Assembly: GCF_964355755.1 (NCBI RefSeq)
Contig: NC_092679.1
Location: 20,195,432-20,259,431, forward strand
Source: Antedon mediterranea
Lineage: Eukaryota > Animalia > Echinodermata
DNA: 64,000 nt
Reading direction: 5' to 3'
Shown here: positions 22,556 to 62,231 of the stretch, one piece after another
Position numbering within the stretch: position 1 is the first letter of the stretch
How the letters are laid out: every line of letters begins with the position of its first letter
Notes under the pieces: generated by a model
What the model saw: only the letters and a program-made list of their open reading frames with translations
The model's database searches: none
What the model was told of the DNA's origin: nothing
Made by a program: the position numbers and the translations under genes

Positions 22556-22829
22556 TATTCAATATACGAAATTACATTGGTAAGTTATGTAATGAAACAC
22601 CGATATTAATAGAATTATATTGACGTCACATCAACCTGTTTTTGTTGTTACCCACGTGACCGTGTGTTGAATCTGCACAGAGGCAGTCGCCGAAATATTA
22701 TATTTATTTTGTATTACACAGGAGCCGTGCCTTATTATAGTAAGTGACTGTGCAAATTTGAAACCCATTTATACGTCTATACCAGTGTTGATACCACGCC
22801 ATTGTGTCTTATTGACGACGATTGATAAG

Positions 22830-35879: not shown

Positions 35880-38800
35880 ATGGCTGACTTTCATATATTT
35901 CAACCAGATGATATCGAGATCAAGCATAATCTGGGAGATAAGTTTAATTTATCCTTCGGAATTGTGAAAATTACTGGCGAATCAGTAGCAGTGAAGAAAA
36001 ATGTCACAATTGGCGTGCAGAAACGGGAGTTGGATATATTGAAAGGTCTACAACATACAAATATTGTCCGACTGTTGGGGATTATTGAGAGCGAACAGCA
36101 CACGTCACAAGGGTTAGTACTTGAATATGCACCAAACGGAAGCCTATATGATTTCTTACATAAGAAGCCTAGAACTCAATTCGACTATTTAGATTGGTGC
36201 AAACAGGCCGTACGCTCGGTCGTGTATATCCACAGTAAAGGCATATCGCATAGAGATATAAAATCTAAGAATTATTTAGTTTTTGGAGACACTATCAAGC
36301 TAACTGATTTTGGCTTGTCAAATTTCAAACTTGACGTTACTTCAACTACTTCGCGTAATGTACGCGGTACGATCATTTGGATGTCTCCTGAAGTAATGGA
36401 TGAAGCGGAGGGTGTCGATTATTTTAAAGCAGAGGTATACTCCTTAGGAATAGTTTTGTGGGAATTATATTATAAGAGAAAGCCCTATGAGCATCTAAGT
36501 ATGGCACGTATCACTCAACATGTTCTTAATAAAGGTCATCCAGAAATGGATGATACATGTGACGTACGCTTGCGTGATGTGATGCTGAATTGCTGGAATT
36601 ACCAACCAGACCAAAGACCAAACGCAGAGCAGATTCTGACGTCACTTGATAACGTACCTGAAATATTGGTCAGAAGTAGTTTGAAGGTAATAGTATAATT
36701 ATTAATACCTGTAATTTCTGCAATACAGTACAATGACAACAGGTTTGTAAATACATCATTCGAGTCTGTCAATATATATTTTTGTTACTGTTAATGCTCA
36801 TCTTTTTCCATTAATTAATGAATTTTATATTTGCAGGAAGAAGATCAGACCGCATTTCAACATTTGCTAGCAAACCTCAGCAAAGATTATGCTGGTAATA
36901 AATACCGTTGGTTAAAAATGCTTCTACATGGTATTATACCTAATGGATGTTATGACGATAACTCTACAGGGCTTGACTTATTTAATGAACTTGTTGACAT
37001 TGGAAAGATTTCAATTACTGATGTCACCCTCTTGTCGGATGTTGCTGAAACCACCGAACAGACATCGGCAAAAGATCGTATAGCCGAATATAAAAGGACT
37101 GTACAATGCAGTGAAACATTAGGAACAAGATTAACACCATATCGGAAGGCTCTTTTTGAAGCCCTCAGGAATGTTGGGCGTGATGATTTACGTAATGTCA
37201 TTGGTTTCTACAAAGTTACATTCCATGGCTTTGACAATATATGGGATGTTGTTTTTCACCTTGAGCAACACAAACTATTAGATGATACCCAAGAAAAGTG
37301 TAAACGGTTTGCAGATCTTCTAAACAAAAAGACAGGGAGTATTTTACTAGGTAAATCTTGATAAAATATAATTATACATTTCTGGTTATATCATTTATAA
37401 TAATACTACTTAGTGGAAGAATTTTTCAATTCTAAATAGAATCGGATGTTAGAATATATGTTATAATTGTCCATAATTGTTCTTTTCCCATAGCTGCTCC
37501 AAAAACCCTAATAAGGTAAGAAGACTACCAAAACGAAAAAAATAAGATAACTCGCAATTTAAAAAATCTTTTAGGACAAAACAATAGAAATGATTTATAA
37601 TATAAGAAACAAAGATTTACTAAAGTGATAAATGTTTCGGTAAAGAATTATTAACGTCATGTAGGCCTACATTTTTCTATAAATATAAAACGAATTGAAG
37701 TACGTAGGGATATATACTAATTTTAATGTGTCGAGGTACAATAAATTTGAATAAATATGAATGAATAAATAAACTTTAAAGGAATAAGAAACGGAAGAAT
37801 AAAGTGGTTTAAGAATACGATTTATTTTATCGGAAGAAACAATTGAGGAAAGTATATAATTATTAAGAATTAGAATGTTGTAAGATGCAAATGAAACACG
37901 GTAAATAAATGTTAATAGAAATGCGTGCGTTTGTTTTTGCGTGTAACATTTTACCTGATAAAATGAACTTGAAGTATTAGTAAAACACCACTACTCAAGA
38001 GGAATTATGCTAAGGCATTGAAGAATTAGTTTTTAGATATTTTTCTGAACAGGCTCAGAATGAATTTCTGACTGTGTGCGTCATGAGAAGGTACGTGGAA
38101 AACCCCGTCATATGGGTCGTTGATTTGTCCGTAGTCATTGCATTTTGCCGGGGATTCCCTATCATTTAAGTATTTCCGTAGTACCCTATTTATCTTCATT
38201 TCTCTACGTCCCTAATATTGGGCAGAATTTCTGTAGTAATTACGGACGTTCCGAACTTTGAAATAACAGTGTTTAATTGCTTCTTTCTGCAAATTCTCTT
38301 TCATATTTTCTTTTCTGGAGTGAAGCAACACTGTTGTACATTTTAGTGAATAAATGAAAATGATTTTTTTAAATTGTTGTTTTACTGACTTACTTAGCAT
38401 TTATTGAAAAATAATACAATTCAACGTTTTGCTCAATATATTTATAGCAGCAATTATTAATTGATAATAGGCCTAGTAATTAGTTTGGGGACTTCCTCTG
38501 ACGTTCGCATTCGCAACAAATGTTATCCTTAGTCACATTTTTATCCGAATTATTACTCATTTTGTTTGTATATTGACATGATAATGTGTTCATTTATTCT
38601 GTGCATGTTAAAATATGTTAAATGCATATCGCCGCAAATTACTCAATTATTATTTTTGTGTTGGGTCTGATATGTTCGTTTTATTTATGCACATGTGTTC
38701 TTAAGACCAAAGCTCCATGATAAACATTGAATTACTCCTGTATTGTATTAAAAACCAAATCAAATGAAGACGTTTTATTAAATTTATTTTTTTTATCACT

Positions 38801-41800
38801 AATTTTCTTGTTGATTCTGCTTGTATTGATGTGTGAGTTCCTGATAATCCTATTTGTTCCTTAGGTCACCTAAGCAATGGAAGGAAAAACGTTTTAATTA
38901 AATTTCTTTTTTTTTCTTAGCATTTCTTTTTTCATAGCCAAACTATTAATACGCCGTCTGTACTAAGAGAGTATCACTGACAGTTGAATTTGTTTTTCGC
39001 CAAGACTCCATGATACAACTAAACTGGAATGAAAACAACAAATCTAATAAATGCAAATTGTAGTGGAATAACGTTAAGAATGATAAAAAAATAAAATAAA
39101 AAATACTATACAACAAAGCATGAGATGCGATAACTAATAGCAAAAACAATAGCACGGTCTAATATATGCGTGAATGGCGCGCCATAGAAATCTGTTGTGG
39201 CTGAAACTGTCTGGTGATATTCGTCAACACGAATACGCTTTACGAATATGAAATGGGGATCAGCTCAAAGGTTTAACAAAATGTGTGATGTATCCGTTTT
39301 CGTTATCGTATTCGTAAGGTTGCGAAAACTCCCTATTATTGGATAAAAACGTGAACTTGGTGGAAGATTTCATTTATAGAAATTGTTACATACATTACAC
39401 AACTGTTTCTTTTTTTTTCACAGATGATATCCATAATATTAGGTAAGGAATCGGATGCCAGATAGTGGGGTTTTCAGAAAATAAGTCACTTTACAACTTT
39501 TAACAAGTATTTTGATCTCCGATTTTGTTCGTACACGCATTCACAGTGTAATTTACCCTGCATTTACGTCAGAGTAGGATAAAGCACCAACTAAAATAAA
39601 TCTTGATTTTGAAAGTTTAGCAGCAAATCTATACCATAATACTAGTATTTGATAAATACATTAATTTGCCAATTTCACAGTCTGAAACCGGCACTAACTT
39701 TACTCTTTATTAAAAATAATGGATTGATATTTGTACAAATTTAGAGATGGAACACCTCAACAACATTTGGATACACATTCCAAACCAGACCAAAGGCTAA
39801 ACGTGAGTGTAATGCCACTTGATAACAAAACTGAAACACTCGTCACTAGTAGTAGTAGACCTAGCGCCAGGCAAAAAGAAAAACAAAAATCAGGAATACA
39901 CACGGTAGGATAATATGAACTTGTATAGTTGGCCTAGTGACCTCGGAATGCCAAACAATTCCTCATAAACAATTTAATTTATGGTTTTTAGGTTTAGATC
40001 ATTATTAGTTGGTTTGTGACTTTTGGATGACTATGAAAAACGGTTTCTTTTTCTCAAATTCCAAACAATAATTCGTTTCTTATATCTACTGTTTTCTAGA
40101 CTTGGCTATGTATAGCACTGGGTGTGGTGATGGTAGGTGTCGCAATACATTATACAGCACCGACTCACGAACTTACCACAGAGTTTGTTAGGGACACGGC
40201 CGCAGCACCAACTCGCGAACCTACGACAGAACCAGTTGAAGACACTACTACAGCACCAGCTCCCGAACCTACCACAGAGTCTGTTAGGGACACGACCACA
40301 GCACCAACTCGCGAACCTACGACAAAACCAGTTGAAGACACTACTACAGCACCAGCTCCCGAACCTACCACAGAGTTTGTTAGGGAAACGACCACAGCAC
40401 CAACTCGCGAACCTACGACAGAACCAGTTGAAGACACTACTACAGCACCAGCTCCCGAACCTACCACAGAGTATGTTAGGGAAACGACCGCAGCATCAAC
40501 TCGCGAGCCTACTACTAAAGCACCAACTCCGGAACCTACGTCATCAGAGTCGATAACAACACACTCCAAAGATAAGAAAAAAGAAGAGCCTAAACGAATA
40601 ATCAAAAATAGGCGTGAAAAGGTAAAACGTTTTACTTATTAACTATTACATTATTTCAGCGTCAGGGGCATACGCTCTGGAATAGTCTTTGTATCACCAC
40701 CCGACAGTGATTTAGTTCACTTTTGGGGTGCCCTGTCTTATTTTCTGGCTGTTATTTATTGTTTTGTTTATTGTTTTGAGACGAATAAATGAAATGAAAT
40801 GAAATAAAATTGTATAAATTTAAAAAAAAGGACGCAAAAAGTGTCTGGTTAAGAAAAATAATACAACGTGTTGGAATTTAATTTAGTATGTAATACAGGA
40901 GCACCACAAAGATGCGTCCTTTCTCCTGTATTGTCAGCATATATACACATGAGTTTAAAATTAAATTTGATGACTGCGTTTTAATTAAGTACACCGATGA
41001 CAGTGTTATAACTGGATCTATTAAGGATAATAATGAATTAAACTATACAGTCAATAAATAATTTTGGCACATGGTGTTGTAATAATTTAGTACGAACTAA
41101 AAAGATCATTTTTGACTTTAGACGCTCTATTAAAAGCCATAATTGGCTCCAATTGTCATAACTATCAATGAACAAAATATTGAAATTGTAGAGGAGTTTA
41201 AGTATTTTAGTGTTGTGCTTGATAACAACATTAATTGGAAAGCCAACACTTTATCTAAATCCAAAAGAGCAAGACAGAGAATGGTTTTCCTCCGAAAACT
41301 TAAAACATTCAATATTACATGTGACATTCTTAACCTTTTTAAGTGTTCTTTTATTCGGCTCTATTGTCTGGTTCTCGAATCTTACTGAAAAATACCAAAC
41401 TAGCTGAAATTGTAGTGTGCCAGTAAAATCATCGACATTAGCCTTGAACTTTTATTTCGCTTCGTGAAAGGGGCATCCTAAAAACTGTAAATACAATTCG
41501 TCAGGATCCTGATTACCCTCTTTAAGCTTAGCCAAACTGGTAGACTGATCACTCTGAATCAAACACTAAACGTTGCCGACAATAATTTGTTATTGTTTAT
41601 AGTTCGTATGGTCTCTTTAGATTCATTGGTTACACGCTTTTTCTTTGAATTCATTGTAAATTGCATGTAAATCAAAATGTAAACCTTCCAACCAAATTCG
41701 TTGTTAAAATGACAATAAATAATATCGTATCGTATTGTATCGAAGGCTTTATATAAAATTAATTTTGCACTGTTCTTTTTGATTTGTTTTTAATAGTCAA

Positions 41801-42844
41801 ATACAGATAGCGAACAAGCTACAAAATCAGGTAGGTATACACGCATATTATTATGAAGGATAATACCCTAGTTAAAATGTAACTAGTGTTCCTGACTATA
41901 TTCTGCTCACTTTCACTTTACAACAGGACATGGTCTACGTAATCTGTATTAAACCTGTAGATTCGAAGATATTTTGACCCGTATGAAAAACCCTCCGTAG
42001 GTCCACTCTTATTTAAGTGTTGATATAAGTGCCATCACTTTTTAAATAGCTTCTTTTTATGACGAGGTTTTTCATTTCTTTAATGTGCATGTTTGGTTAG
42101 TGTCTGAATATTAAAACTCTTCTCTTTAGCATCTGCCTACATATTTTTTTTTTGGAAATTGTCCCCATTGGAGGACTAAACTTTGGATTTAACTTTGACC
42201 ATATTTTCATTCTTTAGGGAGTTTTTTTAATGATTTCAACTACGAAATCGAATATGCTAACTGGGAGCATTTTGGTTCAGAAAAATGGGGAAAATGCCGT
42301 AAACAACATTATAAGAAAAGAAATAAAACTGTTGATTTAGGAAGCCGTTATTCAAAAACAGGAGGTAAAATGGTTTAATCATATATGCATTGACAATCCG
42401 ATAAATCATTCAATTATTTCGACAATAAACTGATCGTAATTTTAAATGTTGTTAGCAAATATGCCTATCTAATTTATAATTTCAGATGATTATTACATTT
42501 GTGTTGCAATCAATCGTGGTGATAGTAGGCCTGAATCCACCAAAGGGGGCTATCTTAATAGTTCAAAAATTCCAGACGAATGGGATGAAGCGTGCCTTAC
42601 ATTTGAATACTTCATTACTGACGGACAAATTGATGTAGATCATTATAAAAATGGCAAACCTGAAAACGTGTTCACCAGTGGTTATACTAAAGGAAAATGG
42701 AAACCTGCAAGAGTTACTATTAATACTGTCGATATAAAAATATCCTACTTGTTGATTGGCGGAAAAGTATCTGGTGATGACACAGAGGTAGTTGCTATTG
42801 ACGATATTGATCTTACTGATGGTCCTTGTACACCAGAGGATTAG
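35880..42844 (+). CDS. Gene A: TKL-type Ser/Thr kinase - tandem DED - TM - mucin stalk - MAM-like domain (predicted type II membrane protein, about 846 aa)
   Basis: Exons: 35880-36686 kinase (VAVK, HRDIKSKN, DFG, GTIIWMSPE); 36837-37350 DED-DED; optional phase 1->2 micro-exons 37494-37515 or 39424-39442; linker 39745/39747-39904; 40100-40621 (TM WLCIALGVVMVGVAIHY, then T/P/E repeats); 41797-41830; 42218-42364; 42486-42844 (CLTFEY..W..A.V.I..VAIDDIDL..GPC, MAM-like, TAG). An in-frame path exists, but the join across 37350-39747 is inferred by analogy with gene C. Confidence 0.7.
40155..40540 (+). repeat. Coding 96-bp (2 x 48-bp) tandem repeat forming the mucin stalk of gene A
   Basis: cagcaccaactcgcgaacc at 40203, 40299 and 40395; encodes TTAPTREPTTEPVEDTTTAPAPEPTTE.VR.T. 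Confidence 0.95.
40880..41722 (+). mobile_element. Decayed Rex1/Babar- or L2-like LINE fragment in a gene A intron
   Basis: Frameshifted RT remnants NTGAPQRCVLSP, IKYTDDSVI, IEIVEEFKYF.VVLDNNINWKANT, ARQRMVFLRKLKTFNI; tail aataaataatatcgtatcgtattgtatcg. Confidence 0.75.
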
Positions 42845-44344: not shown

Positions 44345-47300
44345 TCGTTGTGAGCGGACGTGTTCATATCGAGCTCCGCTAGGCTACCCATTGTGTGGAT
44401 ACTAGGCCAGTCAACGTAGGCATACTGTAGTCTACATGATGTGTTCGACCGGGCTACGTGTGCCGCTACTTATTTTGAACTTATTTCTTGGCCTCTATTT
44501 TTCAAGTTTTAATATGGGATTTTCATCCAGAAATCAATGGCTAAGGCCAGTCGATGGATACTCTGAGCCGGTAAGCTGCAACATTCCTAGCACCGTTGTA
44601 TGTAAATGTTGGAATTTGTATCTATGCGGTCAAAGCAGTACGACTACGTAGTACGAGTGTTGTTGCATTCCAACGTAGCAGCAGACCGTCAAGGAAGATC
44701 TACAGCGCACCACGTTTGCTCTATTCTAATTCCACTGTTACATTCTGTATTCTTTTAAGTGGCGATGTTGAATCGAATCCAGGTCCAGGTAATACTCAGA
44801 CATCTTCAGTTAAGGTATACTATCAAAACGTACGTAGCCTGAAGAATAAAATGGACGTATACAACTCAGATCTGAATGCACACCTAATTCAGAGCAATTT
44901 GGATATTGTCGCACTTACGGAAACATGGTTAAACTGCAACGTGCTCGATTCTGAACTTTCCGTTTCTAATTACACTTTATTTCGACGCGATAGAGATACT
45001 GATAAACGCGGTGGTGGTATCCTGATGCTAGTGAATAACAAATTTACCTGTAACCGAGTGGAACGCCTAGAAAGTGATTCAACGGAGTTCATGTGGATAG
45101 AGATTCAGCTAAAGCGGCGTAGTAGCCTACTTGTTGGATTATTCTATAGACCACCAAACGCTACACCCGATGTCCTCCGTCGTTTTACTTCGTCTGTGGA
45201 AATCGCTATGCTCTACTACAAAAACAGTGAATTCCTCATTCTTGGAGATTTCAACCTGCCCGAAATTAATTGGAGTAGTAACCCTTATTCTGCTCCAGCT
45301 CAGTCCATGGGAGAACACTTACTTGATGTATTGCTTTCTAGCTGTGGCCTATTTCAATGCAATACGTACTGTACAAGAATGGATAAAATGCTTGATCTTG
45401 TTATTTGTAGTAAAAACATTTCCGACAAAGTCTATACTGCTAACGATATTTTTTTATCTGACCACTCATCTTTGAGAATTGATTTCCGTTTAAATTTTGA
45501 TGTTAAATGTAGTAATGATAATTTGAATCGTAAAAGTATAATTTACAATTTTAAAGCACTTGATGTCAATAATCTATGTAATACTCTTAACTGTGTTCCA
45601 TGGAGTGTCTTAATTGATTTTGAAGGTGATTTAAATGAAGCTTTGGATATGTTTTATAATTTGTTAAATGCTGCCGTCAATGACACAGTGCCTAAAATTA
45701 GAAAGCGCAGAAAGCTTCCTCCGTGGTTTGACAATGAGTTGAGAAGTGCGCTTCAACTCAAAGAAAAGTATTATAGATATCTGAAAAAAAATAATAATCG
45801 GTTAGCCCAAAGTAATTTCAAATTTGCTCGCGCGTCTTTTAAAAAAATGTGCAATAAAAAGTACAAAGATTACTTGGACTCTTTGGCTAAGCAAATTGTC
45901 ACTAACAGTAAAAGATTCTGGAGCTGGATGAAAACTAAATACAAGTCAAATAATCTTCCTTCTGTCATGAGTCACGATAACATTTCATTCCAGTCTAATT
46001 ATGATAAAGCTACCACATTTAATTCTTATTTTCATTCTTTTTTCAGTGAGCCTTCTCCGGACGTTCCCCGGGACTATCCAGGTCTTCCTGACTATGCGGT
46101 GGATAACTTAAGTTCTCTGTCTGTGAATCAGCATTCTGTGGAAAAGGCACTTAGTAACATTGATATCAATAAAGCTACTGGCATTGATCAGATTAGTAAC
46201 GTTGTCTTAAAGGGTGCCTCCTCCTCACTCTCTTATCCGCTTTGCAAATTGTTTCAGCTATCTATTAATTCTGGGGTTTTTCCTTCATCTTGGAAACACG
46301 CTAATATTGTCCCAATTCACAAGAGTGGTCCCAAAAAACTAATCTGTAACTATCGTCCTATTTCGTTATTGCCTACTATGTCTAAGATTTTTGAGCGCAT
46401 TGTGCATGATGGTTTGTCATCACATGTTGATAATGCTTTAAGTCCTAGGCAGCATGGTTTTGTCTCTGGGAGATCATGTCAAACCAACCTCGCACTGCTT
46501 CTTGCTACATCATACGATGCAATTAACAGCAAGAAGCAGTGCGATGTGATTTACACTGATTTCTCTAAGGCTTTTGATTCCGTTTCCCATGATTTGCTTA
46601 TTTTTAAACTTTCAAAATTTGGTTTATCCGGTTCACTGTTAAGTTGGTTTAAAAGCTATTTAACTAATAGACAACAGCGTGTTGTCATTGGGGGAGAGAC
46701 ATCTGATTGGCTCCCTGTGTTATCGGGCGTTCCGCAGGGCTCGATCCTGGGCCCGCTTTTGTTTAATTTATTTATCAACGATCTTCCTTTAAAATTTAAT
46801 CATTCCGAGTCTCTTTTATTTGCTGACGATCTGAAATTGTTTAAAGTGATTACCACTCCACAGGATGCTTTTTCACTTCAGGAGGATCTGGATGGTCTCG
46901 TGGAATGGACAGAGAAGTGGGGGATAAAACTTAATGCTAATAAATGCAGATATTTATCTATAACACTTAAAAAAAGGCCTGTGCTCTTCAAATATAATCT
47001 GAGTGGACATGATCTTGAGATGGTTTATGTATGGAAAGATTTAGGTATTTTTATTGATAGTAAATTAAATTTTTGTTCACATATTAATCATGTGTTGTCA
47101 AAAGCTAATAGAATGATGGGCTTAATATGGAGAAATTGTAGGTTTATGAACGACGGCAGGGCACTTTTATCTTTATACAAATCTATTATACGTCCTCACC
47201 TTGAATATTGTTCCGCAATTTTCAATTCAATTTCTCCATGTCAGGCCCGTCGAATCGACAATGTTCAACGGAAGTTTGTTCGATTCCTGTCTTATAACTG

Positions 47301-47809
47301 TGTTAATTTTGCCTTTTCCATTGATTCTGTCAGCAATCGTCGAACGATATCTGATATGGTTTTTTTATATAATATTTTAAATTCTAAATATGACTGTTCA
47401 TTAATTTCACTATTTAGTTTAAATGTTCCTGGTCGTACACGAAACAGACATTTATTGCATATTCCTTTTAGCCGTGTCGACTGTACTAAGAGGGGACTTT
47501 TTCATAGACTACCTTATACATTTAATAATCTAAATAGCAATCATATCGATATTTTTAATGATAGACTTGGTTATTTTAAGAGGACGATGATGTGTTCACT
47601 TCTTGAACAGTCTGCATAACCTGTTTTAATTGAAATTTTTTATGGCATGCCAATCTATGTTTTATATTTATATATATATATTTTATCTGTATTTTATTGT
47701 TAACCGTTTTTGATGTTGTATTGTTTTATGTTTCAAACCTGTTAGTGGCGGTATTTATCGCTGTTGGTTTTGATTGAATAAAATAAAAATAAAATAAAAT
47801 AAAAAAAAA
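44345..47809 (+). mobile_element. CR1-like non-LTR retrotransposon (APE+RT frame 44596-47619) with an N-terminal 2A-like peptide
   Basis: YQNVRSL, LTETWL, LGDFNLP, SDH, DFSKAFDSV, SGVPQGSILGPLLF, LFADD; LLSGDVESNPGP at 44752-44787; (TAAAA)n tail at about 47779-47809. The 5' boundary is approximate. Confidence 0.93.
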
Positions 47810-47961: not shown

Positions 47962-49135
47962 ACTGGCTGGATACTACTGGTTTTGGTATTAGTTGCGCAA
48001 TGGCAAGCAGGAGGTAAGTTTAGAGATATTATTATATTGAAAATAAGTGAGGCAATCAAGAGAGTGATTTTTCAGATAATTTATGATCTAAAAACAGGTA
48101 TTTTCTATACCTGATATGATGTTTTTTTTAAAGTAATACATTAAAAAAATAATGCGTGCTTTTAATACTTTTATTTTTCGACGCTATTAAAAAATATCAG
48201 ATTGTGTTTGTTTTGATTTCAACGATGGAAATTCTGGCTTGATTCCGTTTGGTAGTGAGAATTGGATGCTATCCTCTAAACAACATAATGTCGACCATTT
48301 AGTACACCGAAACTCAGAATCAGGTAAAATTATTTAATCATGCTATATTAGAAATTCAATAAATTACTCAATTTCCGGTTATAAATATTCATTTCATAAA
48401 TGTATTCATTTACTTGGTAAAAAACGATTACAATAACAATAAAAATATACAAGAACAAGATTACAAGCAATATACTAAAAGAATGAGGGTTCAAATAGTA
48501 TAAAATATTAACATTAACAACAGAACAATGCCATATACATGGCTGCAGTCGCGTGCTCATCAAATTTGAGTTAGTGCTAACCGACCAACCGACCGACAAA
48601 CCAATTACTTATGGTTATTTCTGTTTAAATAATTTTAAAAGAAATTCAAAATGCAAGCGACATAATTGTTTAAAAAAATACTATGCCGTGGTAGCGTAAT
48701 ACAGAAATTCACACTACTTTTGTAGAGTAATGCATTTTCAGATGTGCCTAGCAGTGGTCTACCTACTTTACAATTTCAGATTGTTACCTTTATGTTACAA
48801 CAACCGGCAGAACCAAAGCCGGCTACAATCAGAGTCCAGAAATACCAGACGAATGGGATGAAGCGTGCCTTACATTTGAATACTTCATTACTGACGGACA
48901 AATTGATGTAGATCATTATAAAAATAGCAAACCTGAAAACGTGTTCACCAGTGGTTATACTAAAGGAAAATGGAAACCTGCAAGAGTTACTATTAATACT
49001 GTCGATATAAAAATATCCTACTTGTTGATTGGCGGAAAAGTATCTGGTGACGGTACGGAGGTAGTTGCTATTGATAATGTTTGTGTTACTGAAGACGTAT
49101 GCTTTGATGATAATGATGTAAAAGAAGAATTGTAA
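47962..49135 (+). CDS. Gene B: hydrophobic signal/anchor + single MAM-like domain ending in KEEL; start exon not located
   Basis: Exons 47962-48013 (TGWILLVLVLVAQWQAG), 48201-48323 (CVCFDFN..GSENW) and 48780-49135 (SPEIPDEWDEACLTFEY..VAIDNVC..KEEL*). Phases are consistent and the exons are paralogous to the last exons of genes A and C. Confidence 0.75.
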
Positions 49136-52009
49136 TATGCCTAAAATGCATGATTGTAAATCCCAGTTCTCATGGTATTAACATAATAATGTTCATCTAT
49201 TTTATTTCAATTGGTTTATTTATTATTTAAAAAAAAATCATTGACACCTTTGTCGTTTCATATTTAGAGTCACTGAAATATATATGCTTGTAATAATATA
49301 TAGTCGTTCACTGACTCCATAATGTTTTTATGTCACATGCAAGATCACAAAAAATGATAGTAAATGCTAGTTCTACGTGGTATTAGCAAATAATGTTCAT
49401 CTATTGTATTTCATTTGGTTTACTGTATTTAAATTTTAAAAATTATCATTAATACATTTGTTTAAAAATTTATAATTGTTTATTTTTCACTTCCTATTAA
49501 GGATCACGGAAATCTATATACTTGTAATAAATATAGTCGTTCAATTCACAGTATTTTATGTACCAAATCAAAATTGTAGGCCGGATCTACTAATTCGTGT
49601 TCGGTAAAACATGCGGTTGCGTGTTTAATGGCTCTATATGGATGATCTATAATTTCTGTGATTTGAAGCTTCACAAGTAAACGAAAACGTTTCATTGATC
49701 GAAAGACATCTACTGTAGTAGATTAAAAATGCACGAGGTTTGAATTCCATGCACATTGTTGTGTGTAGCTACCACATGCGTACTCAAATAGTACCTGCGG
49801 TCTTTTTCTCTTTTCTCCATTAGTTTCTTCAATTCAGATAAGGTAAGAACTGAAACTTGTCATACGACTATATTCTATTCATGATAAATAGACGTATTAC
49901 TATATGTTGTTTACATTTAAAAAGAGTTTCGTTAAAATTTCAAATGTTCTATAATAGCCGTGATTCCAAATTCATTGCACACTATGTCCACCGGGCCGAT
50001 ACTCACGACGTTCGTGCTTGAACACTTTCTACTTTCTTCACACGTCACACATTCATGTCGGGTATGAATATATTCTACTACGGTATAGTATAGCGTGTAA
50101 CGCATAGGCATAGAGTACTGTTAATCCATTTTGTAACATCTTAACTACTGTATGATATATATATAGGAATATCCTTGTCATCCTTTGGTTTGCAAGTTAC
50201 ATTTTCATTTTTGGTAAAGGTGTTTATGGTTTTTTATTAGTGTAAAGATTTATCGTCAAGCTGTATTTGATTGATGACAATTTAATCGAATTAAACATGG
50301 TTGTGGTACATAGCTCAGATTGTCTGCATTTATTTATTGAAACTACGTGTTACTTTTAAACGGTCGCCATTCCAGCTCGTCTGTACACACTCAATGACAT
50401 GTATATAGTTTTTCCGGTTACCCAAATGTGTTTTGTAAAGACGCACAGCATATCTCGTGATTACTAGACAATAACATGTTGATGATTGTATGGATAGGGC
50501 CCAGATTAGACTCACATAACCTGTGTTAATTTCTTGAATTGTTTCAATAACTTTATAAAATATTATACAAAGTATTAGTAGTAGGCTTATCCATATTAAA
50601 GAACAACCTCATCATGCGAATCCTTGAGCCGTTCATGATTATTCATTTTGCGAGCCGATCATCCAAGACATGTAAACGCGGGCCAACAAATGAGGGGATA
50701 CGACCCCACATATCGCAATAGTATAACCATAGAGATATTATCTCTATGATAAAACCATGAGAAATAATAACATGCATTTATAGGAATTTTGTCAAAAGCC
50801 GTTTTAGGAAATCGGTTGGATAAAAATAGATATTTGTGATTTGCAATTTCATTTTATTTTGAGAGTATACAAACAAGAAGTGTAAGTTGAATGGAGAGAT
50901 CATTCCCTCCATTCAACGAATACAAAACATTTGTTATGCGTTAATATAAATGACGCATCCCTAGTAATTATTTAATTTATCAACAGAAAACACCGCTTTC
51001 ATCTATGTGATTTCAAAGCGGGACTTGAACCTTAGAAGCGGGATGCAGAGTATCCTCCCTCTTGTCATTAAAATAATTAATATTTTATATTCGTCGAGTA
51101 AAAGAACAGCAAATCTACAAGAAAAACAATTCTCCTCAATTTAACTTATGTGAACCAGGGTGGTTATACCATAGAGATATTATAGTTCACTATAATATCT
51201 CTATGGTTATACCAGGGAAGAGTTAAACTCTTCCCTGGTTATACGTACACTCCCTTATAAACATTCATCATTGTATAGGCCTAATAATCACCGGCACGCG
51301 ATACAAAATCAACCAATCAAATGGATACACTTGGACTAATATAATCAATGCATAACAATGCAAATTCCGATGCATATCCTATTTGGAGTAGTGTTAAGAA
51401 TGCTTATACTTTTTTATTTCTTATATTTTTTATACGTTATTTAATGGAGTCCGTCACATTATTTATTTCTTTAAAATGTTGGTATGAATTCCTTTAATTG
51501 GGCAACGACTAAACTACGTTTACGTTTGTTCGTTGACCAACGAATTAAACTGTATACTACATTTGCATTTATTTTTGTTTGTATACCTTTGTTTTTCATT
51601 TTGGTAACTGTAGTATTTGTCCTGGGTCCTAGTAAGTATCTACTTAGGCCGTGCTAATAATGCTTTCTGATCTCTTTTTGCTTGCATTTTTATATTTTGT
51701 TATGTCATTATTTAAATATTAGTGTTTATGAAATTTAAACTGAACTGATTTACATTGATGAAGTACTTTCGTAACGGCCATGTATTACGGTCCAAAAATG
51801 ATGACGATCTTTGTATCATGGATTGATTTAGTTTAAACGAAATAAATAACAACAAGCTGTATTTTTATACTTTGGAATTTCCTGGCCTTTTGTGATTCAA
51901 ATTGATTGAAATTACTAGTTCATGCATACTCAATTAGTGTTAAGGCCGAAATACATACATGATACAGTGCATCACAGATATCGATGTTTGACTTCAGAAT
52001 TTTGAAAGC

Positions 52010-54722
52010 ATGGTAAGTAGCTTATTTAAAAAAAACTGTATTTAGTACTCGGTTACAACTAAATACTGGATCTAGATATGCGTCACCATCCGAATTAATC
52101 GAGGACGTACAGGTTTCACTGACGGATCCAGGATTTAAAATAGGGCCGGACGATGAACCCCACCCATTGGATCCACTATGTGTTTAAATTATATTTCATA
52201 GGTGTGTGACTATGCCTATTTTCGGATAGGGATATTTTGCTTTTTGTGAAGATGCTATTTACTTAGTATTGTAGTATATTTAATCCATAATGATGATGTA
52301 TTTATTGATTCATTTAAGAGTAATTCGCAGTATTGTTATTTTATGTGTGAGTTCTTTTAAAAAAAATTTCTTACGACTGTTTTTATTTTCACAGGAAAGA
52401 GATCAGATAAAATTTAAGCAATTTCTAACAGATCTCAGCAAATATTATGTAGGTGTAAATTACCGTTGGTTAAGAATGCTTCTCTTTGGTATTATACCCA
52501 TTCAATGTTTAGAAGTAAGCACTACAGGATTTCAATTATTTAATAACCTTGCTGAATCGGGAAAGATTTCAAAAACTGATGTTACCCTTTTGTCAGAAAT
52601 TGCCGAAGTTACCGAGCAGACATCGGCAAAAGATCGTATAGCAGAATATAAAAAGATCATACAATGCAGGAAGACCAAAACAAAAGTAACACCATATCGA
52701 AAGGCACTTTATAAAACTACTGTGAATATTGGGCCTAATGATTTGCTGAATGTTACTAACTTCTACCCCCTTGCTGCTCGTAACTTCGACGATATATGGG
52801 ATGTTGTTTTCTACCTTGAGAAAGAGAAACACTTAGATGATACGCAGGACAAGTGCAAGACGTTCGCAGATCTGCTAAATGAAACCGCACGAAATATTTT
52901 ACTAGGTAAGTTAGAATCGGTCAAACATACATACATATCTGGTTTAAAATTGTGTTATTTCCAAATGGATGTATAGGAAGAGGAGTTTATTCTATAGTCA
53001 TAACTTTACCCTAAACTTGGAGGTTACATTCGATTCTTAAACATTTCAGAATATTTTTTACTGGATTTTTCAGTGTCGGAACACAGGAGTTATTTTAAAA
53101 CTTTTTTGTTACAGATGCTGCTAAGTCTTTACCTTATCAACACTTGGATATACAGTTCAAACAAACTCATCAGCCTGTAACAGCTCCTTTTCCCGAACCA
53201 AAACGAAGACCAAACGCGGAAGATATGCTGACGTCACGTGATCATGAGGGAACTGAAACATTTGTCCTTAGTAAGCCTATTGCCGGACAAAAAAAGAAAC
53301 ACATATTAGAAAAACACACAGTAAGGATAATATCAACTTGATTTTTTTTATAGGCCCAGTGAGGTTAAACAATTCCTCGCATATAATTTATGTTATTGTT
53401 ATTTAGGTATTAATTACGCGTGATATACTTTTAAATGACTGCGAAAAATTAAGGTTCCTTTTTCACAAAATCCAAACAATATTAAAAATGATTGTCTTAT
53501 ATCTACTATTTTCTAGACTTGTCTATGGATATCACTGATTGTAGTAGCTGTGTTGGTTGCCATCGTTATACAACAATCAGTTATAGAACCGACTACAGAA
53601 CCAGTTATAGAACCGACTACAGAACCAGTTGGAGAAACGACTACAACACTAACAGCGCCCTCCAAAGACGGGAATAAAGAAGAAGCACCCAGAGAAATGA
53701 AGGGAAATAATAGGCATGAAAGGGTAATGTATATTTTTACTGATTACCTTTTGCAAATATATATATAATTCCTCCATGCTATTACATTGTAGTATCATAT
53801 TCAAATGTTAGGAGTATTGACATTAAATGATAGATGTCGATTTTTGTTAGGATATGACGATCATTGGGATAAGTTCTCCTCTATGTGTTGATGTAGGCTA
53901 ATTAGTGTGGTATACGATAAATAAGCACTGATTGTTTTATTTATTTGTTAATAGTCGACAGCTCCAGCTAGAGAACGGACGATCTCAAGCAGTAAGTATA
54001 CATTCAACATTCATACTTATAGAATATCTTCTTTTACAGATATACAGCCGTGTTAGGAGGCAAAGTCAGTTTAAAATAAATTAAACAGAAGTATTTCAGT
54101 GTACGGTTACATAGCATATGCCTACATATTTGTTAGTATGATTTTATTTTAAAGGTATTTTGAATGATTTCAACCACAAAAACATTAATTATGCTGGCTG
54201 GGAGGATCATGGTAGCGAAAATTGGGAGATACACAATAAAATAATTAATTCCGGCTACAATTTAGGAGAGCGTTACTCAGGATCAGGTAAAGCATAATTA
54301 TTCTTACTTTTTTTTTCAATAACCCTGACTGACGTCATATTTTGATAGCAATTAGAACTATGGATTTTATAATTTCAGATAATTATTACATCTATGTTGC
54401 AAAAAATGGCAGAGAATCCAGAAAGAAGGGCTACCTTAACAGTCCAGAAATACCAGACGAATGGGACGACGTGTGTCTCAAATTTGATTATTATATTAGT
54501 AACAGGGATTCACAAATCGATGTAGATCACATTTTTAACGGCGAACATAAAAAGGGATTCAAAAGCCCCAAACATCGTCATGAACAATGGAACTCTGCAA
54601 CCGTTACCATCAATACTGTCAATAAACAAAATTCCTACTTTATGTTTTGCGGAAAAGCATCTGGTAGCGGTAAACAAATAGTTGTTATTGACGATATTAG
54701 TTTTAGTGAGGGCGAATGTTAA
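52010..54722 (+). CDS. Gene C: tandem DED - linker - TM - short Thr/Pro stalk - MAM-like domain (predicted type II membrane protein, 479 aa)
   Basis: Clean 7-exon model totalling 1440 nt with no stops: 52010-52012 (ATG|gtaagt), 52395-52905 (DED-DED), 53115-53320, 53517-53723 (TM CLWISLIVVAVLVAIVI after basic KKKHILEKHT), 53955-53991, 54155-54286, 54379-54722 (CLKFDYY..W.SATVTI..VIDDISFSEGEC*). Confidence 0.85.
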
Positions 54723-55701
54723 GTTTTCTATATGATACATGTAAGATCTGGGTAACATCAAACGGTTAACAAAAATGGTAACCGTAAATACGAATACCAG
54801 TACTACATGTAGATGGTATTTTTCAAAACTAAAATATAAATTATTCCACTACTTATTACATTTTAATTTATTCCCTCTCTAGGCATACAACTTTTTTTTT
54901 TTCAAATGTAGGCCTATAATTATGTACATTTACATTTTATTTCATGTTTAGAGACACGGAAATCTATGCTTGTGTAGTCTTAAACCATAAAGTTGATTAT
55001 ATTTTGGGTTTTTTTAGGTTCTTAATAAAAATTTATATAACTAATGTCGAAGTTTTCCTTTCAAATTGAAATTTAAAGAGAATTTATTACACTTTAATAT
55101 TAAAACAAATATAAATGATTTAAGTTCGGCATACAAGTTCGTACATTTTTCTAAAACCTAAGCATGAAGCCGAGTGCTGCAGTATTACATACATATATTA
55201 ATACATACATCTGGAAATATTTTACGCGTCTTGTGATAATTGTGTTTGGCGTGGCCACAATACCTGGTGTATATAAACTTGCTCCATGCATTAGGTGTAC
55301 CTACGTCAACTGTTAACATATACTGTCGTTCCCATGTATGATAACTAGGAGGAGGAAGTACATCTAAACCTATGTTGTGTGGTTTCCGTACACTATTTCC
55401 TGTGACGCAAGTACAGTTGACAGTTTGGCTGTATGTATTTCCTATGATGAAATTTACTGTCATAATTCCATTCGACTTCAAAGTACGCTCTCTTTATTCT
55501 ACGAAGGAATTAGCCTAAACGAACCAGCAGTTAGAATCAAAACCATTCATATTATAATTTGTATTTTTATACTTTGGAATTTCCTGTGTGAGTTATGAAT
55601 TGAAATTAACTGATGCATAACATTAAAGTGGTAAAAATAATTGTGTTTAAAATGGTGGCCTAAATAGAATGTATCGAAGTTATAGCAGCACTATGTGAAG
55701 C

Positions 55702-57857
55702 ATGGTAAGTACAGTCTATTTTTTGGGATTGTATTAGCAAAATTACCATCTGGCAAATACTGACTAATAATACATTGTACCTGATATTCCACTATATCCT
55801 CCTCTATCGAGTGATGTTACTAGGCCTAGTTTATCTTACCATCGACGTAGGCCCATCAGTGTAATGGCATTACCTCGGTGAACGTCTTCATTATAGGCCT
55901 ATTGATAGGATTGTTTTAGATTCAGAATGCTATATAATCGTGAAATGGAAAGACATTTTAACTATGGTACGTTGTTTTTTAACGATGAATTCATATGAGT
56001 CATGCTCAATAACACGTTTTCTTTCCTGCTGTAATTTATGTTTCCAGATAACTCAATAATAATAACAGTTTCATACAGCGTAATTTATCAATAATGTTTA
56101 TGACTCGTCATAAGCATAGCAGCTTTATTTATGCTAATGCCATATCTTTTTTACTGATAAATTTTGAATTTATAGGATACTGATCAGATCAAATTTAAGC
56201 AATTTCTAACAGATCTCAGCAAAGACTATGTCGGTTTAAAGTATCGTTGGTTAAGAATGCTTCTACATGGTATTATACCTATTGGATGTTTAGAAGTTAG
56301 CACTATAGGACTTCAATTATTCAATGAACTTGTTGAACTTGGAAAAATTTCAAAAACTGATGTAAGCCTTTTGTCAGAGGTTGCTGAAACCACCGAACAG
56401 ACATTGGCAAAAAATCGTATCGTCGATTATAAAAGGACTATACAATGCAGTGAAACATAGGAACCAGTTTAACATCATATCGAAGGGCACTTTTCGAAGC
56501 CCTCAGGAATGTTGGGCGTGATGATTTACTTAAGGTTATTGGTTTTTATGCACTGAAAGACTATGGCTTTAACAATATATGGGATGTTGTTTTTTACCTT
56601 GAGAAAGAGAAACTCTTAGATACACAGGACAAGCTAAAACTATTTGCAGATCTCCTGAACGAAATGGCACGAAGTATTTTACTAGGTAAATTAGACTAGA
56701 GAAGATTAAGAGGATCTCGGACAGTATACTGTTAATCTTTTCTAAATTGAGAGTATCATTATCATTGGTCTAGAAAGTTAGTTATAAGTGCATTGATTTC
56801 TCAATGGTTAGCATACCCTTACCATAGATTATTATGAACAACTATTGCCTGAGCATATTTAAACTTGGGGAAAGGTTTCATTAGAGTTTTAATCTTAATG
56901 TGTATTTATGAAATTGTACGTTACGTTAAATGTTTCCATTTATTCTTTTCAGCAGCCGCTCCCAAGACTCTGTAAAGAAGGTGAGAATAATGACTTCACC
57001 AAAAATAATCTTAATGAATTACCTCTGAAAAATTATTATAATGGTCCAGCAATGACGTAATGGTCAAATTGTTTGTATATTATATGTAGTTAATGTATTT
57101 ATGCTTACACCATGATGCTGGAATTGAATTAAATTGACAATTCTCATCCCTTTGTCCGACAAGTAGTCCCATTAAAAAATATTTGAAACGTTTTTAGCAT
57201 CAGTCCATATTTATTTAATGCGATAATACTGTCCAAATATAGAGAGAAAACCACTTCTTCACCACACGTCAATGCTCCTTTGGATTGGCAAAAAGAAGGA
57301 CTCCGACGAATAAAGGAAAATGATCTTAAGAGAAGTTATTCTGGGACGGTAGGCTGTCTATCTATTAAGTATAACTGAATTTTTGAAATAGAAAGGAGTA
57401 GTTATTGGACCTTGTTCTGAACCCCTGACATTATATTCAAATTTGACACTAATAAATAAACATTTCTGTCGTCTCACATGACACTGGTATTCTGAAGACG
57501 CGTAGGCCTCCAAAACGATAGTTTATAATGTCCGTGTTTTCATTGTAGCTTAATTATGTATTTTTAATTGGCCTGGTATTTTATTGTATTGTATTGTTCA
57601 TAACGATCGTTGTTCAGACGTTAGAAAAAGAAGATAAATAACTTTTATTTATTTTAACATTACAGGTGAGAGTATATGATCGAGAATTTAAGTTTGATGG
57701 TGGCCATGAATGGTGGAAGTTTTTTTCAACAGCTACCGATATTGAAACTGGAATTAAAGCGAAAGCAGGGGGTTACAAATCAATGGGTGGAGCAAATGAA
57801 CATGCTATCGAAAACCTAATTTATAAACTAATTGCGCAGGGTATCATAAGAAATTAG
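55702..57857 (+). pseudogene. Gene D: tandem-DED gene with a frameshift, followed by exons encoding an ALF-like or dsRBD-like C-terminal domain
   Basis: ATG|gtaagt at 55702-55704. The DED exon 56176-56685 has a 1-nt deletion near 56457 relative to gene A (gaaacataggaacc vs gaaacattaggaaca), giving TAG at 56458-56460. Micro-exon 56953-56980 (AAPKTL*) is homologous to 37494-37515 but carries TAA. Phase-compatible exons 57243-57348 and 57666-57857 follow. Confidence 0.6.
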
Positions 57858-58293: not shown

Positions 58294-59112
58294 ATGGATA
58301 CCTTACGTGTATTTCGACCAAATGAGATCGAGATCCAGAAAGAAGCAATGAAAGGTGTTAATGGGAAATGGGGAGTTGTATTAGATACTCGCAGGTCAGT
58401 AGTGGTGAAGACTGTCCCAATTGGTCTACAGAAAAGGGAGGTAGATATATTGAAGAACCTACGACACGAAAATGTTATCCAACTGTTGGGGACTATTGAG
58501 TATGAACTGCCCACGTCAGCATCGTTAGTGCTTGAATATACACCCGACGGAAGCCTATATGATTTCTTACATAAGACAAGACCTCAATTCGACTACTTAG
58601 ATTGGTGCAAACAGGCCGTACGGTCGGTGGAGTATATTCACCGTCACGAAATATTGCATAACGACATACAATCGAAGAATTATTTAGTGTTTGGAAATAT
58701 TATCAAATTAACCGAATTCGGCTTTTCGGAATTCCAACATCAAGACGCTACCTCACGTACTTTTCGCGATACAATTCTCTGGAAGTCTCCCGAAGTTATG
58801 AATAGATATACAAGTGTGGGCCTACATTTTAAACAAGATGTATACTCCTTAGGAGTAGTCTTATGGGAATTGTATCACAAGAAGGAGCCATACAAAGTTC
58901 TGAGTATTGTAGAAATTATTCAACATGTGGTTAACAATAAAGGTTATTTAGAAATTGATGATACATGTGACGTACGCTTGCGTGATGTGATGCTGAATTG
59001 CTGGATGTACCAACCAGACCAAAGACCAACAGCAGAGAAAATTCTGGATTCACTCGAAAACAAAACAGAATTATTTGTGCGAAATACTTCATGGAAAAAA
59101 GAGAAACATAAA
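58294..59112 (+). CDS. Gene E kinase exon: predicted pseudokinase, paralogue of the gene A kinase
   Basis: Strong similarity to 35880-36686 (LVLEY..GSLYDFLH..QFDYLDWCKQAVRSV, DDTCDVRLRDVMLNCW.YQPDQRP), but HRDIKS is HNDIQS, DFG is EFG and GT-WMSPE is DT-WKSPE. Phase-0 donor AAA|gtaagg at 59112. Confidence 0.85.
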
Positions 59113-59649
59113 GTAAGGATAGTACCTAGATTTATTTTATATTTAAGGCATAGTAGTGCAAGTCAAAATCTTAAAGAATTGAACATGCATGTTTAAATGT
59201 CTGCCTCATGAATAACCATATTTATATGGCCCCTGTCTCGTGGCGGGGCCCTTCTGAATCGCTTGGCTCTGGTGATACAGCATAGGCCTTCCTAGCTTGG
59301 GCCTTGCATTCAAACGCCGCTTTTAACACAGAAATTTTAACCCAATAAAAATGTTATTTCATTAAACAATTAAATTACAAGTTCAAATATTATTTATAGT
59401 TTTGAAAATTCTACGTTTAAGTGTAAGTTGAACTGTATATTCAAGGTTATAAATACATTATTTCTAGTCGTTCTTCGTAAACGGGAAATTACAACTTTAT
59501 CGTCCTCAAAAAGTTAAGACGACGGAATTACGCTAAGCTCCGCCCAATTTGTTAAAGCTCATGCATAAATTATTCATGAGCACCGTTCTGTGGCTTCCCG
59601 TCGTGTTTCGTAAAGTCCCTATTGTTAGAAATTTGATTATTGACTTGTC

Positions 59650-60052
59650 CACGTATATAAGATATACCATGATGTAGATTCCACTTTTTTAGCAGACAAT
59701 TTTTACAAAGATTTCTAAACAACAGGCTACTGTACGAGGAAATAAAAAATGGACATTTTGTAATTCCTAATATCAAAGGGTTAGCTTCGAAAACATTTTA
59801 ATATAATACTATTAAATATTGGAATAATCTTTCATCAAACATTAAAGGTATAAAAACACTTAATGAGTATAAAAGTGCTATAAAGCTTTATCTTAGTAAT
59901 GTGCATAGCTAGACTGATAGTCTTGTGAACTGTTATATTTTTGTGAATTTTTCTATGTTTTTGTTTTAAGGACCTCATTGGAATTAAGCTTTTTTTTTAG
60001 CTTTATGGGTAAATCCTTGGTATGTTGATTGGACCGAATAAAACAAACAAGC
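59650..60052 (+). mobile_element. 3' remnant of a CR1/L2-type LINE
   Basis: Degenerate C-terminal frame FVIPNIKGLASKTF*YNTIKYWNNLSSNIKGIKTLNEYKSAIKLYL, then a 3' UTR with aataaaacaaacaa. Confidence 0.6.
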
Positions 60053-60059
60053 AAAATCT

Positions 60060-60830
60060 TATCCTTTGGTTGATTTAAGACTTTCTCCTAATTTGTTTTT
60101 GGGAGTTGTATTTATGTTTATGTTGTGATGTTTCAATGCTCTTCTTAATCTTTCAATCATTCCTTCCACGTACGGTAAATCGATGTTTACTCTGGATTTT
60201 TCGCTATCTGTTGTTTAGTTATTTCTTTGTCTTTATTTGTTTTCTTATGTTCATTTTTGTTCTTGACTCTTTCGAAACTCAAGTTTGGATATCCGCATGT
60301 TGATAATGTTGCTTTAATGTGACTCATTTCTTGTTATTGTCCTTCTGTCGATGCGATGGATTCACATCTATTCACTAAATACTAGGGTGTTGACTACGCT
60401 GAGTTTGTGTTTGAGTAGGTGGTTAGATTAGAAGTGCAGGTATGTATGTGTACATTTTCTATACATTGATGTTTCTATTGTCTTGGATGGTGATAAGAGT
60501 ATTGAGGAAAGGGATGGTATTGTTTTGCATGTTCTCCATATTGAATTTTATTTGGCCTGTCTGGTCAATGGTGTTCAAATATTGGAGGAGTTCTTCTAAT
60601 CCAATTGGTACGATTGCCAGGATGTCATCTACATATCTGCGCCAGAATATCGGTGTGATGTTGCTGTTTCTGTGGCACGTTGTCTTCCGTGAACATATTC
60701 GCCATTATGGGGCTAACAGGGCTACCCATTGCCATTCCCGCCTTCTGTTTAAAAAATCACCATCAAACGTAAAATATGTTTTGTTAAGAACGAGACTCAA
60801 CAGCTCTGAAGATAGCCGAAACGTAGCAAG
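60060..60830 (-). mobile_element. Penelope-like element RT fragment
   Basis: Minus-strand GMAMGSPVSPIMANMFTE..WRRYVDDILAIV..LNTIDQTGQIKFNME..IPFLNTLI (PLE-type RT motifs), with stops and indels. Confidence 0.8.
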
Positions 60831-61717
60831 AAGTACGAGAATTCACAAATATTATATTGAATGTTTATTTTTTTGCTGAACGGTTTTATTTAGTCTAAGA
60901 GTATCTACAGACCTACGATAGAAGAATAAGAGCTGCAATAGGTACTTTGTTGCCGTCTGTGTTTAGTATGGTACATTGTAGACTTGCCCCAAGTCTGTAT
61001 TCATGTCTTTTTTTATTTATTTGTTTTTATTTGATTTTTGTCTCAAGTAGTATACGTATGAAACGCCATATGTGCCAAAATATTTATCTTTTTACTAATA
61101 TTAAAACAAAACTCCGTCTGGAACCCAGACTAGGTACATTGTTATAAATACGAAATGCAAATAATTATTTAAAGTTTATTACTGCAGTTGGGAAATATAT
61201 TTTAAAGGCGTAGCGGTGAAATAAACTATGCGACTGTCATGTCTAATTAATTTTATCATAAGCAAATTCATCAAACATCCAATGTGTCAGAATTTACAAG
61301 TATTCGGTGAGCGATACCAACACAAAAACATTCAAATTTAAACAATTAATTTGGACTCATTTTGCAACAAGTTTTTATTTCGGAAGTTCCCATGGTGCTA
61401 AATAAATCACCGTGTCTATTTTTTCGTTCCTGTGAACGACAGGTATTATTTAGTCCTGCGGTACACAACATAGCCTTATAGCCGTACATTGAAAATCGCC
61501 AGTTTTTTTACACCGAAATTACCGTGTATTCGAGAACCATCTGGCATCTAGTATGTTTAGAATTTGAAATAGGTAAGTATTAATGCCTATGCAATTTTCT
61601 GCAATACAGTACAATTACATCAGTTTTCAAATACATCATTCGAGTCTGCCAATATATAATTTTGTTAATGTTAATATGCTCTTATTTTTCCCTTATTGAT
61701 GATTTTTTTAATTACAG

Positions 61718-62231
61718 GAAACAGATAAGACCGCATTTCAAGATTTGTTAGCAAACCTCAGCAAAGAATGTGTTGGTGATAAATACCTTCGGTTAAGAAT
61801 GCTTCTACATGACATTATACCAAGTGGAAATTTAGAAGATAGTACTACAGCACTAGAATTATTCAATGAACTTGATGACATTGGAAAGATTTCAGTTACT
61901 GATGTCACCCTCTTGTCAGATGTTGCTGAAACCACCAAACAGATATCGGCAAAAACACTTATAGCCGAATATAAACAGACTGTACAATGCAGTGAAACAA
62001 TAGGAACAAGATTAACACTATACCGAAAGAAACTTTTTGAAGCTCTAACTGATGTTGGCTCTGATAATTTTCATACTGTTATTAATTCTTACAAACTTAA
62101 AGGCCGTAACTTTAAAAATATATGGGATGTTGTTTTCCACCTTGAGAAAGAGGAACTGTTTGATAATACCAAAGAAAAGTGTAAACGGTTTGCAAATCTA
62201 CTAAGCAAAAAGTCAAAAAGCAAATTACTAG
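61718..62231 (+). CDS. Tandem-DED exon (fourth copy); spliced from the gene E pseudokinase or from an upstream exon ending near 61572
   Basis: ag|GAAACAGATAAG..TTACTAG|gt with an open frame, homologous to 36837-37350. The preceding intron (61590-61717) is homologous to 36710-36836. A possible next micro-exon lies at 62368-62387. Confidence 0.85.

Follow-up and report, generated by a model that had tools for sequence, protein, structure and literature searches.

The window analysed here, a 64,000-nt stretch of the genome of the feather star Antedon mediterranea (contig NC_092679.1, positions 20,195,432 to 20,259,431), carries a tandem cluster of related genes on its + strand. One of them, gene C (52010-54722, +), encodes a protein with a tandem death effector domain (tDED) ahead of a single membrane helix and a MAM domain.

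Exon structure and start of gene C

Gene C comprises seven exons that join to a frame of 1440 nt, or 479 amino acids, with zero internal stops. All splice sites are canonical, with GT donors and with AG acceptors preceded by pyrimidine tracts; the base composition of the window is AT rich (GC, 0.26 to 0.41). Exon 1 ends in a proposed start codon, ATG (52010-52012), followed by a GTAAGT donor. Exon 2 (52395-52905) encodes the tandem DED, residues 2 to 171, with DED1 at about residues 2 to 90 and DED2 at about residues 100 to 171. Exon 3 (53115-53320) encodes a linker and the juxtamembrane part with a basic patch and contains what seems to be a remnant of the C-terminal tail of a kinase. The transmembrane helix (residues 242 to 258) and a Thr/Pro-rich stalk are encoded by exon 4 (53517-53723), which is 207 nt long and in phase 0-0, and the stalk continues in a short exon 5 (53955-53991; 37 nt). 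Exon 6 (54155-54286) and exon 7 (54379-54722) encode the N-terminal and C-terminal parts, respectively, of the MAM domain, and exon 7 ends with a TAA stop.

A word-indexed search with exon 2 returned eight proteins, every one of them from A. mediterranea, a crinoid echinoderm. P0001 (XP_071963913.1; 451 amino acids, "uncharacterized protein") is identical to residues 29 to 479 of gene C, exon 5 included, which gives independent support to exons 2 to 7 and to each of the five junctions joining them. The seven-exon, 1440-nt frame without lesions that the first-pass annotation had described was thereby borne out. A chimeric model, in which the DED and MAM parts belong to separate genes, was ruled out since the public model joins both; two diverged paralogs with the same frame and order also speak against it.

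Exon 1 is missing from P0001, which begins at Met29 inside exon 2. Codons 2 to 28 are open and 60 to 68% conserved with the paralogs, and the alignment runs from the acceptor at 52395 onward. In the structure model described below, the first helix of DED1 and a portion of its second helix are made from these codons, with high confidence. The sequence ATGGTAAGT is present at four sites in the window, each of them on the + strand and none on the - strand. One of these is located 385 nt upstream of the gene C acceptor, and another lies 474 nt ahead of the homologous acceptor of gene D, a neighboring paralog. Both the gene C and the gene D proposed ATGs have A at -3 and G at +4 and thus a Kozak-like context. 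Furthermore, the gene D exon starts with DTDQIKFKQ, and the annotated paralog P0002 starts with M-DTDQIKFKQ. Paralog conservation, the spacing of ATGGTAAGT and the Kozak-like context thus make an ATG-only start exon, as originally proposed, likely, but it is absent from the public model and its junction is not confirmed by RNA reads. The other two ATGGTAAGT sites are at 23389, after a DOMON-domain exon (22671-23111), and at 44251, just ahead of a LINE open reading frame (ORF). Exon 2 could also be extended upstream without splicing (an ORF from 52284, with the hydrophobic sequence MMMYLLIHL...), but this was rejected as the start because the added stretch is the pyrimidine tract of a conserved acceptor and 52395 is the exact point from which all paralogs are homologous.

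Upstream of gene C, a block of 27 nt (51858-51884, +) is identical in 27 of 27 positions to 55560-55586 (+) upstream of gene D, and this was the sole upstream stretch that blastn aligned between the two genes, whose tDED coding exons are 77.7% identical. The block had two matches in the window versus 0 expected in 100 shuffles. It lies about 115 to 125 nt ahead of the proposed ATGs of both genes and includes TTTTTATAC and GGAATTTCC, which are reminiscent of a TATA-like box and of a Rel/NF-kappaB site. The block is a candidate promoter or 5' untranslated region element, and the two genes may share it as an inducible core promoter. Three further ATGs lie between the block and the proposed ATG of gene C, which would speak against that start should exon 1 reach so far upstream.

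Domains and predicted topology

The first-pass annotation had called the N terminus of gene C DED-DED. The Pfam DED profile (PF01335) matched exon 2 with 28.7 bits (E = 1.6e-6), below the cut-off of 35.9 bits, and the second half of the module had no Pfam DED match in three of three paralogs. Four aligned relatives did score above the cut-off, with 54.9 (P0011), 49.6 (P0009), 37.8 (P0012) and 36.9 bits (P0013). In the Protein Data Bank (PDB), a single-sequence phmmer search with exon 2 did not find a DED; a profile of eight paralogs matched FLIPs in six of six cases, but weakly (E = 0.22 to 1.7). When P0001 was used as the query for an exhaustive HMMER search of 1.84 billion representative sequences, 104 proteins were found at an E of ≤0.001, and in a local scan, the whole 170-residue double module was found in 73 of 106 proteins. 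Names were checked for 30 proteins, of which 26 were from A. mediterranea and 4 from another crinoid, Anneissia japonica. The family alignment contained 44 sequences, mostly paralogs, with 29 to 68% identity to gene C, and its profile gave 16 matches in the PDB, i.e., nine to caspase-8, four to cFLIP, two to FADD and one unrelated (best E = 2.4e-4). The alignment of the profile with caspase-8 extends across DED1 and the linker into DED2, of which it includes the first helix.

The fold was modeled with AlphaFold (AF2) from the same 44-sequence alignment. The model has a pLDDT of 95.4 and a pTM of 0.88 and consists of six helices followed by five; an earlier model from eight paralogs had a pLDDT of 43.8 and was not used. 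When the model was compared with known structures by Foldseek, the top ten rows were all tandem-DED entries of caspase-8, with template-modeling (TM) scores of 0.71 to 0.76 over about 177 columns, and seven matches in total had an E of ≤0.001. VIA-align likewise matched the tDED of caspase-8. On the basis of the profile matches and the model, the N-terminal module of gene C is a tandem DED of the caspase-8/cFLIP type, with two death folds packed as one unit, in line with the original call.

The same module is found at the head of an A. mediterranea caspase, P0054 (XP_071950579.1, "caspase-6-like"; Pfam caspase, 181 bits), and exon 2 of gene C is 30.6% identical to its prodomain over 170 amino acids. 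DED surfaces are known for a charge triad/RxDL motif and a hydrophobic FL patch; in the family alignment, (K/R)-x-(I/D)-L-L closes DED2, and Y124 is nearly invariant after F123. A comparison of the first with the second half of the module by hhalign did not find an internal repeat (probability, 0.65%). Protein-language look-alikes of residues 93 to 170 were DED clusters at 0.84 to 0.85, which is under the bar of 0.9 and serves as a lead only.

The tDED is followed by a single hydrophobic segment, CLWISLIVVAVLVAIVI (residues 242 to 258; hydropathy, 2.81), and only one stretch, residues 240 to 258, exceeds 1.6. The linker of exon 3 ends in the basic patch QKKKHILEKH directly ahead of this helix, and the helix is followed by a Thr/Pro/Glu-rich stalk with two copies of EPTTEPV. 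By hydropathy, the N terminus is not hydrophobic, the highest value among the first 14 windows of 19 residues being 0.13. These data agree with the basic patch, 17-residue helix, Thr/Pro stalk and lack of an N-terminal signal peptide that had been annotated. The C-terminal domain is, by its sequence, a MAM domain: the Pfam MAM profile (PF00629) matched P0001 with 58.8 bits (cut-off, 26.4 bits) over residues 299 to 451, covering positions 3 to 157 of 158 of the profile, and matched exon 7 alone with 53.7 bits. MAM domains canonically have four conserved cysteines; the MAM part of gene C has Cys398, Cys456 and Cys479 and is thus Cys containing, as annotated. A phmmer search with P0001 against the PDB gave zero matches at an E of ≤0.01. 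The nearest MAM relatives are the extracellular MAM-CUB-ZP/somatomedin proteins P0010, P0020 and P0028; the MAM domain of gene C is 38 to 49% identical to the MAM units of P0010, whose gene is on the same chromosome-scale contig.

How is the protein oriented in the membrane? The 15-residue flanks of the helix contain five Lys/Arg (net charge, +4) before and none (net charge, -3) after it, and the same bias, five versus one Lys/Arg, was found in the paralogs P0004 and P0007. Moreover, in kinase-bearing paralogs, a TKL kinase and the DEDs share one side of the membrane helix, which fits only with a cytosolic N terminus. With kinase and DEDs in the cytosol and the MAM relatives being extracellular, only an N-in/C-out orientation meets both. 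Gene C is therefore predicted to encode a single-pass type II protein whose DEDs face the cytosol and whose MAM domain is extracellular. The positive-inside assignment made by the first-pass annotation is thus supported, as a prediction, by the charge bias, by the lack of a signal peptide and by the company the domains keep.

Paralogs, neighboring genes and family distribution

Only 3 of the 106 relatives, P0001, P0004 and P0008, all from A. mediterranea, contain tDED and MAM together. P0004 and P0008 are 54 to 55% identical to gene C and keep its frame and domain order. A hydrophobic segment after the tDED was found in 12 of the 73 tDED proteins, including P0067 of Anneissia japonica and P0012, a tDED-transmembrane-NACHT protein; in P0009, another of the twelve, the hydrophobic segment is inside the GTPase part and is therefore probably not a membrane helix. 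The tDED module is greatly expanded in A. mediterranea, where it is fused to caspase, TIR, NACHT, Roc-COR/ZU5, RING-NHL and ubiquitin, and P0009 has four tandem copies of the whole module.

The cluster was mapped by tblastn. Gene A (35880-42841, +) corresponds to P0004 (XP_071963970.1; 853 amino acids), which consists of a TKL kinase, a tDED, a transmembrane helix, a long Thr/Pro repeat stalk and a MAM domain. Behind a LINE-type ORF with endonuclease and reverse transcriptase (44575-47619), there is an orphan last MAM exon (48785-49102, +) whose product is 80% identical to that of the gene A MAM exon, with a dN/dS of 0.51; it is likely a remnant of a paralog broken by the LINE insertion. Gene D (56176-57854, +) has a tDED frame that is broken at about 56457, where the aligned segments switch frame and an in-frame stop follows "...QCSET," and a different C-terminal domain: its exons at 57241-57351 and 57666-57854 encode the non-MAM ectodomain that is also found in P0002, P0003 and P0007. 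This domain of about 90 amino acids had zero Pfam matches; a weak lead points to anti-lipopolysaccharide (LPS)-factor-like folds (feature score, 0.78; TM score, 0.73 over 83 residues). Gene E (58294-62197, +) has a kinase exon (58294-59109) and a tDED exon (61712-62197) that are 2.6 kb apart, and the dN/dS of the tDEDs of genes A and E is 0.91. Elsewhere in the window, there are a second LINE-type ORF (24982-28458, -) and an exon of a 2-oxoacid dehydrogenase acyltransferase (15317-15814, +).

The kinase of the paralogs belongs to the TKL group and is closest to MAP3K12, ZAK and TAK1 (E of about 1e-30 to 1e-28). By tblastn, no kinase exon was found between 49102 and 52395, and gene C is thus kinase-less. 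A trace of the kinase may have been retained, though, in its linker: positions 53196-53266 in exon 3 are 74.6% identical to the 3' end of the gene A kinase exon (36604-36671), their product is 54% identical to residues 75 to 108 of P0003, and exon 3 and the kinase tail have the motif ...RPNAE..LTS.D..TET.V.S in common. This suggests that the linker of gene C arose by duplication of a kinase C-terminal tail. Taken together, gene C likely belongs to a receptor family specific to crinoids, as a member without a kinase.

Possible function and comparison with known systems

From this architecture, we infer that gene C encodes a kinase-less type II tDED-transmembrane-MAM receptor whose clustering would seed DED assembly, a reading to which we give an even chance of being right. 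Binding of a ligand outside the cell, or contact between MAM domains, would cluster the protein and, with it, its cytosolic tandem DEDs, from which a DED assembly would grow. This assembly would recruit A. mediterranea DED proteins such as the DED caspase P0054 without a FADD-like adaptor, and the outcome would be caspase activation or immune signaling. A complex prediction for the tDEDs of gene C and P0054 had a score of 0.00 and gave no evidence either way.

Several observations weigh against a receptor of this kind. Transcripts of gene C were not found: one possible RNA run had only exon 2 contigs, which were 90 to 95% alike and thus paralog-like, and the other three sequencing runs span introns and are therefore DNA. 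If translation started at Met29, as in the public model, helix 1 and part of helix 2 would be removed from the modeled DED1. The MAM domain of gene C lacks the N-terminal Cys pair that is retained in paralog P0008, and its ectodomain has zero N-x-S/T sequons. P0005 and P0006, isoforms of a paralog whose gene is outside the window, differ solely by a 37-residue membrane-helix cassette, giving membrane-bound and soluble forms; since the transmembrane exon of gene C (207 nt, phase 0-0) could be skipped in frame, a soluble isoform is conceivable here as well. Finally, when gene C was compared pairwise with gene A, dN/dS was 0.52 in the tDED and 0.48 in the last exon of the MAM domain. Values of about 0.5 over short stretches argue for moderate constraint only; they would be compatible with a functional, fast-evolving gene.

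Beyond gene C itself, the cluster as a whole may constitute a FADD-independent death-receptor system, although we put this forward only tentatively. Its tandemly duplicated type II receptors would have interchangeable ectodomains (MAM or possibly anti-LPS-factor-like), and their own tDED, with or without a TAK1/MLK-like kinase, would nucleate DED filaments of the caspase-8 type; gene C would be the kinase-less death or decoy arm. Without a kinase such as genes A and E have, it may be either a pure death arm or a cFLIP-like damper of these paralogs.

The latter would make gene C a membrane-tethered inhibitor or decoy that co-assembles with its paralogs A and E or with DED caspases and damps signaling as cFLIP and viral FLIP do with caspase-8. 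We consider this unlikely: nothing in the sequence sets an inhibiting tandem DED apart from an activating one, and kinase-less tDED-transmembrane proteins are common among the tDED proteins (the 12 of 73 mentioned above), so loss of the kinase need not imply a decoy.

Gene C could also be a silent or decaying duplicate, i.e., an intact-looking but unexpressed copy in a tandem cluster with fast turnover. Its neighbors are indeed broken, as seen from the orphan MAM exon and the frame break in gene D, the dN/dS is about 0.5 to 0.6, and the public model does not have the full start of DED1. However, the frame of gene C is open over seven exons with every splice site canonical, neither the tDED nor the MAM domain reaches a dN/dS of 1, and genes C and D have the upstream block in common without a single difference, which renders decay improbable. 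A sensor of cell contact or of self/non-self, in which homophilic MAM binding between cells couples contact to death signaling, could draw on the role of MAM domains in homo-oligomerization or adhesion, as in meprin, RPTP-mu and neuropilin, and on the faster divergence of the ectodomain between genes A and C (about 47 to 52% identity for MAM versus 60% for the tDED), but the weak anti-LPS-factor-like lead for the other ectodomain of the family would point to microbial ligands instead, and we regard such a sensor as very improbable.

The receptor that we favor for gene C differs from known DED proteins in several respects. In the animals studied so far, DEDs are known from soluble adaptors, caspases and inhibitors, and receptor, FADD and caspase are separate proteins; to our knowledge, all known vertebrate DED proteins are soluble. 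The tDED of gene C is only about 17% identical to those of caspase-8, caspase-10, cFLIP and viral FLIP, and it precedes a membrane helix and an ectodomain, whereas the tDEDs of caspase-8 and cFLIP precede a caspase or pseudo-caspase. Gene C also has a single MAM domain at the C-terminal end of a predicted type II chain, unlike meprin, neuropilin, RPTP-mu and the MAM-CUB-ZP proteins.

Domain fusions of the same evolutionary kind have been described. Amphioxus and sea urchin have lineage-specific, domain-shuffled "direct-connection" immune genes, e.g., DED-NACHT and TNFR-caspase, that bypass adaptor steps (PMC2575513; also PMC2246300), and gene C is of this kind; the crinoid tDED module, likewise, has NACHT, TIR and caspase among its fusion partners. 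A DED-transmembrane-MAM or kinase-DED-transmembrane fusion is not mentioned among the amphioxus and sea urchin fusions in the passages of PMC2575513 considered here. Full-text literature searches, judged by titles and the starts of abstracts and with subscription journals outside their scope, found neither a membrane-anchored DED or DED-MAM protein nor papers on crinoid immune receptors. Within the searches made, the tDED-transmembrane-MAM combination was thus found neither in print nor outside A. mediterranea.

By its proposed mode of action, gene C would work like Fas, TNFR1 and DR4/5, i.e., as a surface receptor with a cytosolic death fold that nucleates a caspase-activating assembly on clustering. 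Those members of the TNFR superfamily have type I topology, with an ectodomain of Cys-rich TNFR repeats and a cytosolic death domain, and depend on FADD for access to DED caspases. Gene C, in contrast, is predicted to be type II, with a MAM domain outside and the tandem DED itself inside, and it has neither TNFR repeats nor a death domain. The only Pfam matches of P0001 at an E of <0.01 were DED and MAM; an RXLR row was at chance level (E = 0.022; 15.6 bits versus a cut-off of 26.9). In view of this domain content and the absence of an N-terminal signal, gene C is not a member of the TNFR-type death receptors. If the proposed mechanism is true, a receptor with its own tDED of the caspase-8 type would collapse the chain from receptor through adaptor to caspase into one step, and its paralogs would bear a MAP3K-like kinase on such a receptor as well. 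Gene C would then offer a natural case for asking if DED filaments can be seeded by nothing more than ectodomain clustering, and the cluster provides a chromosome-mapped example of the reshuffling of death and immune modules in a basal class of echinoderms.

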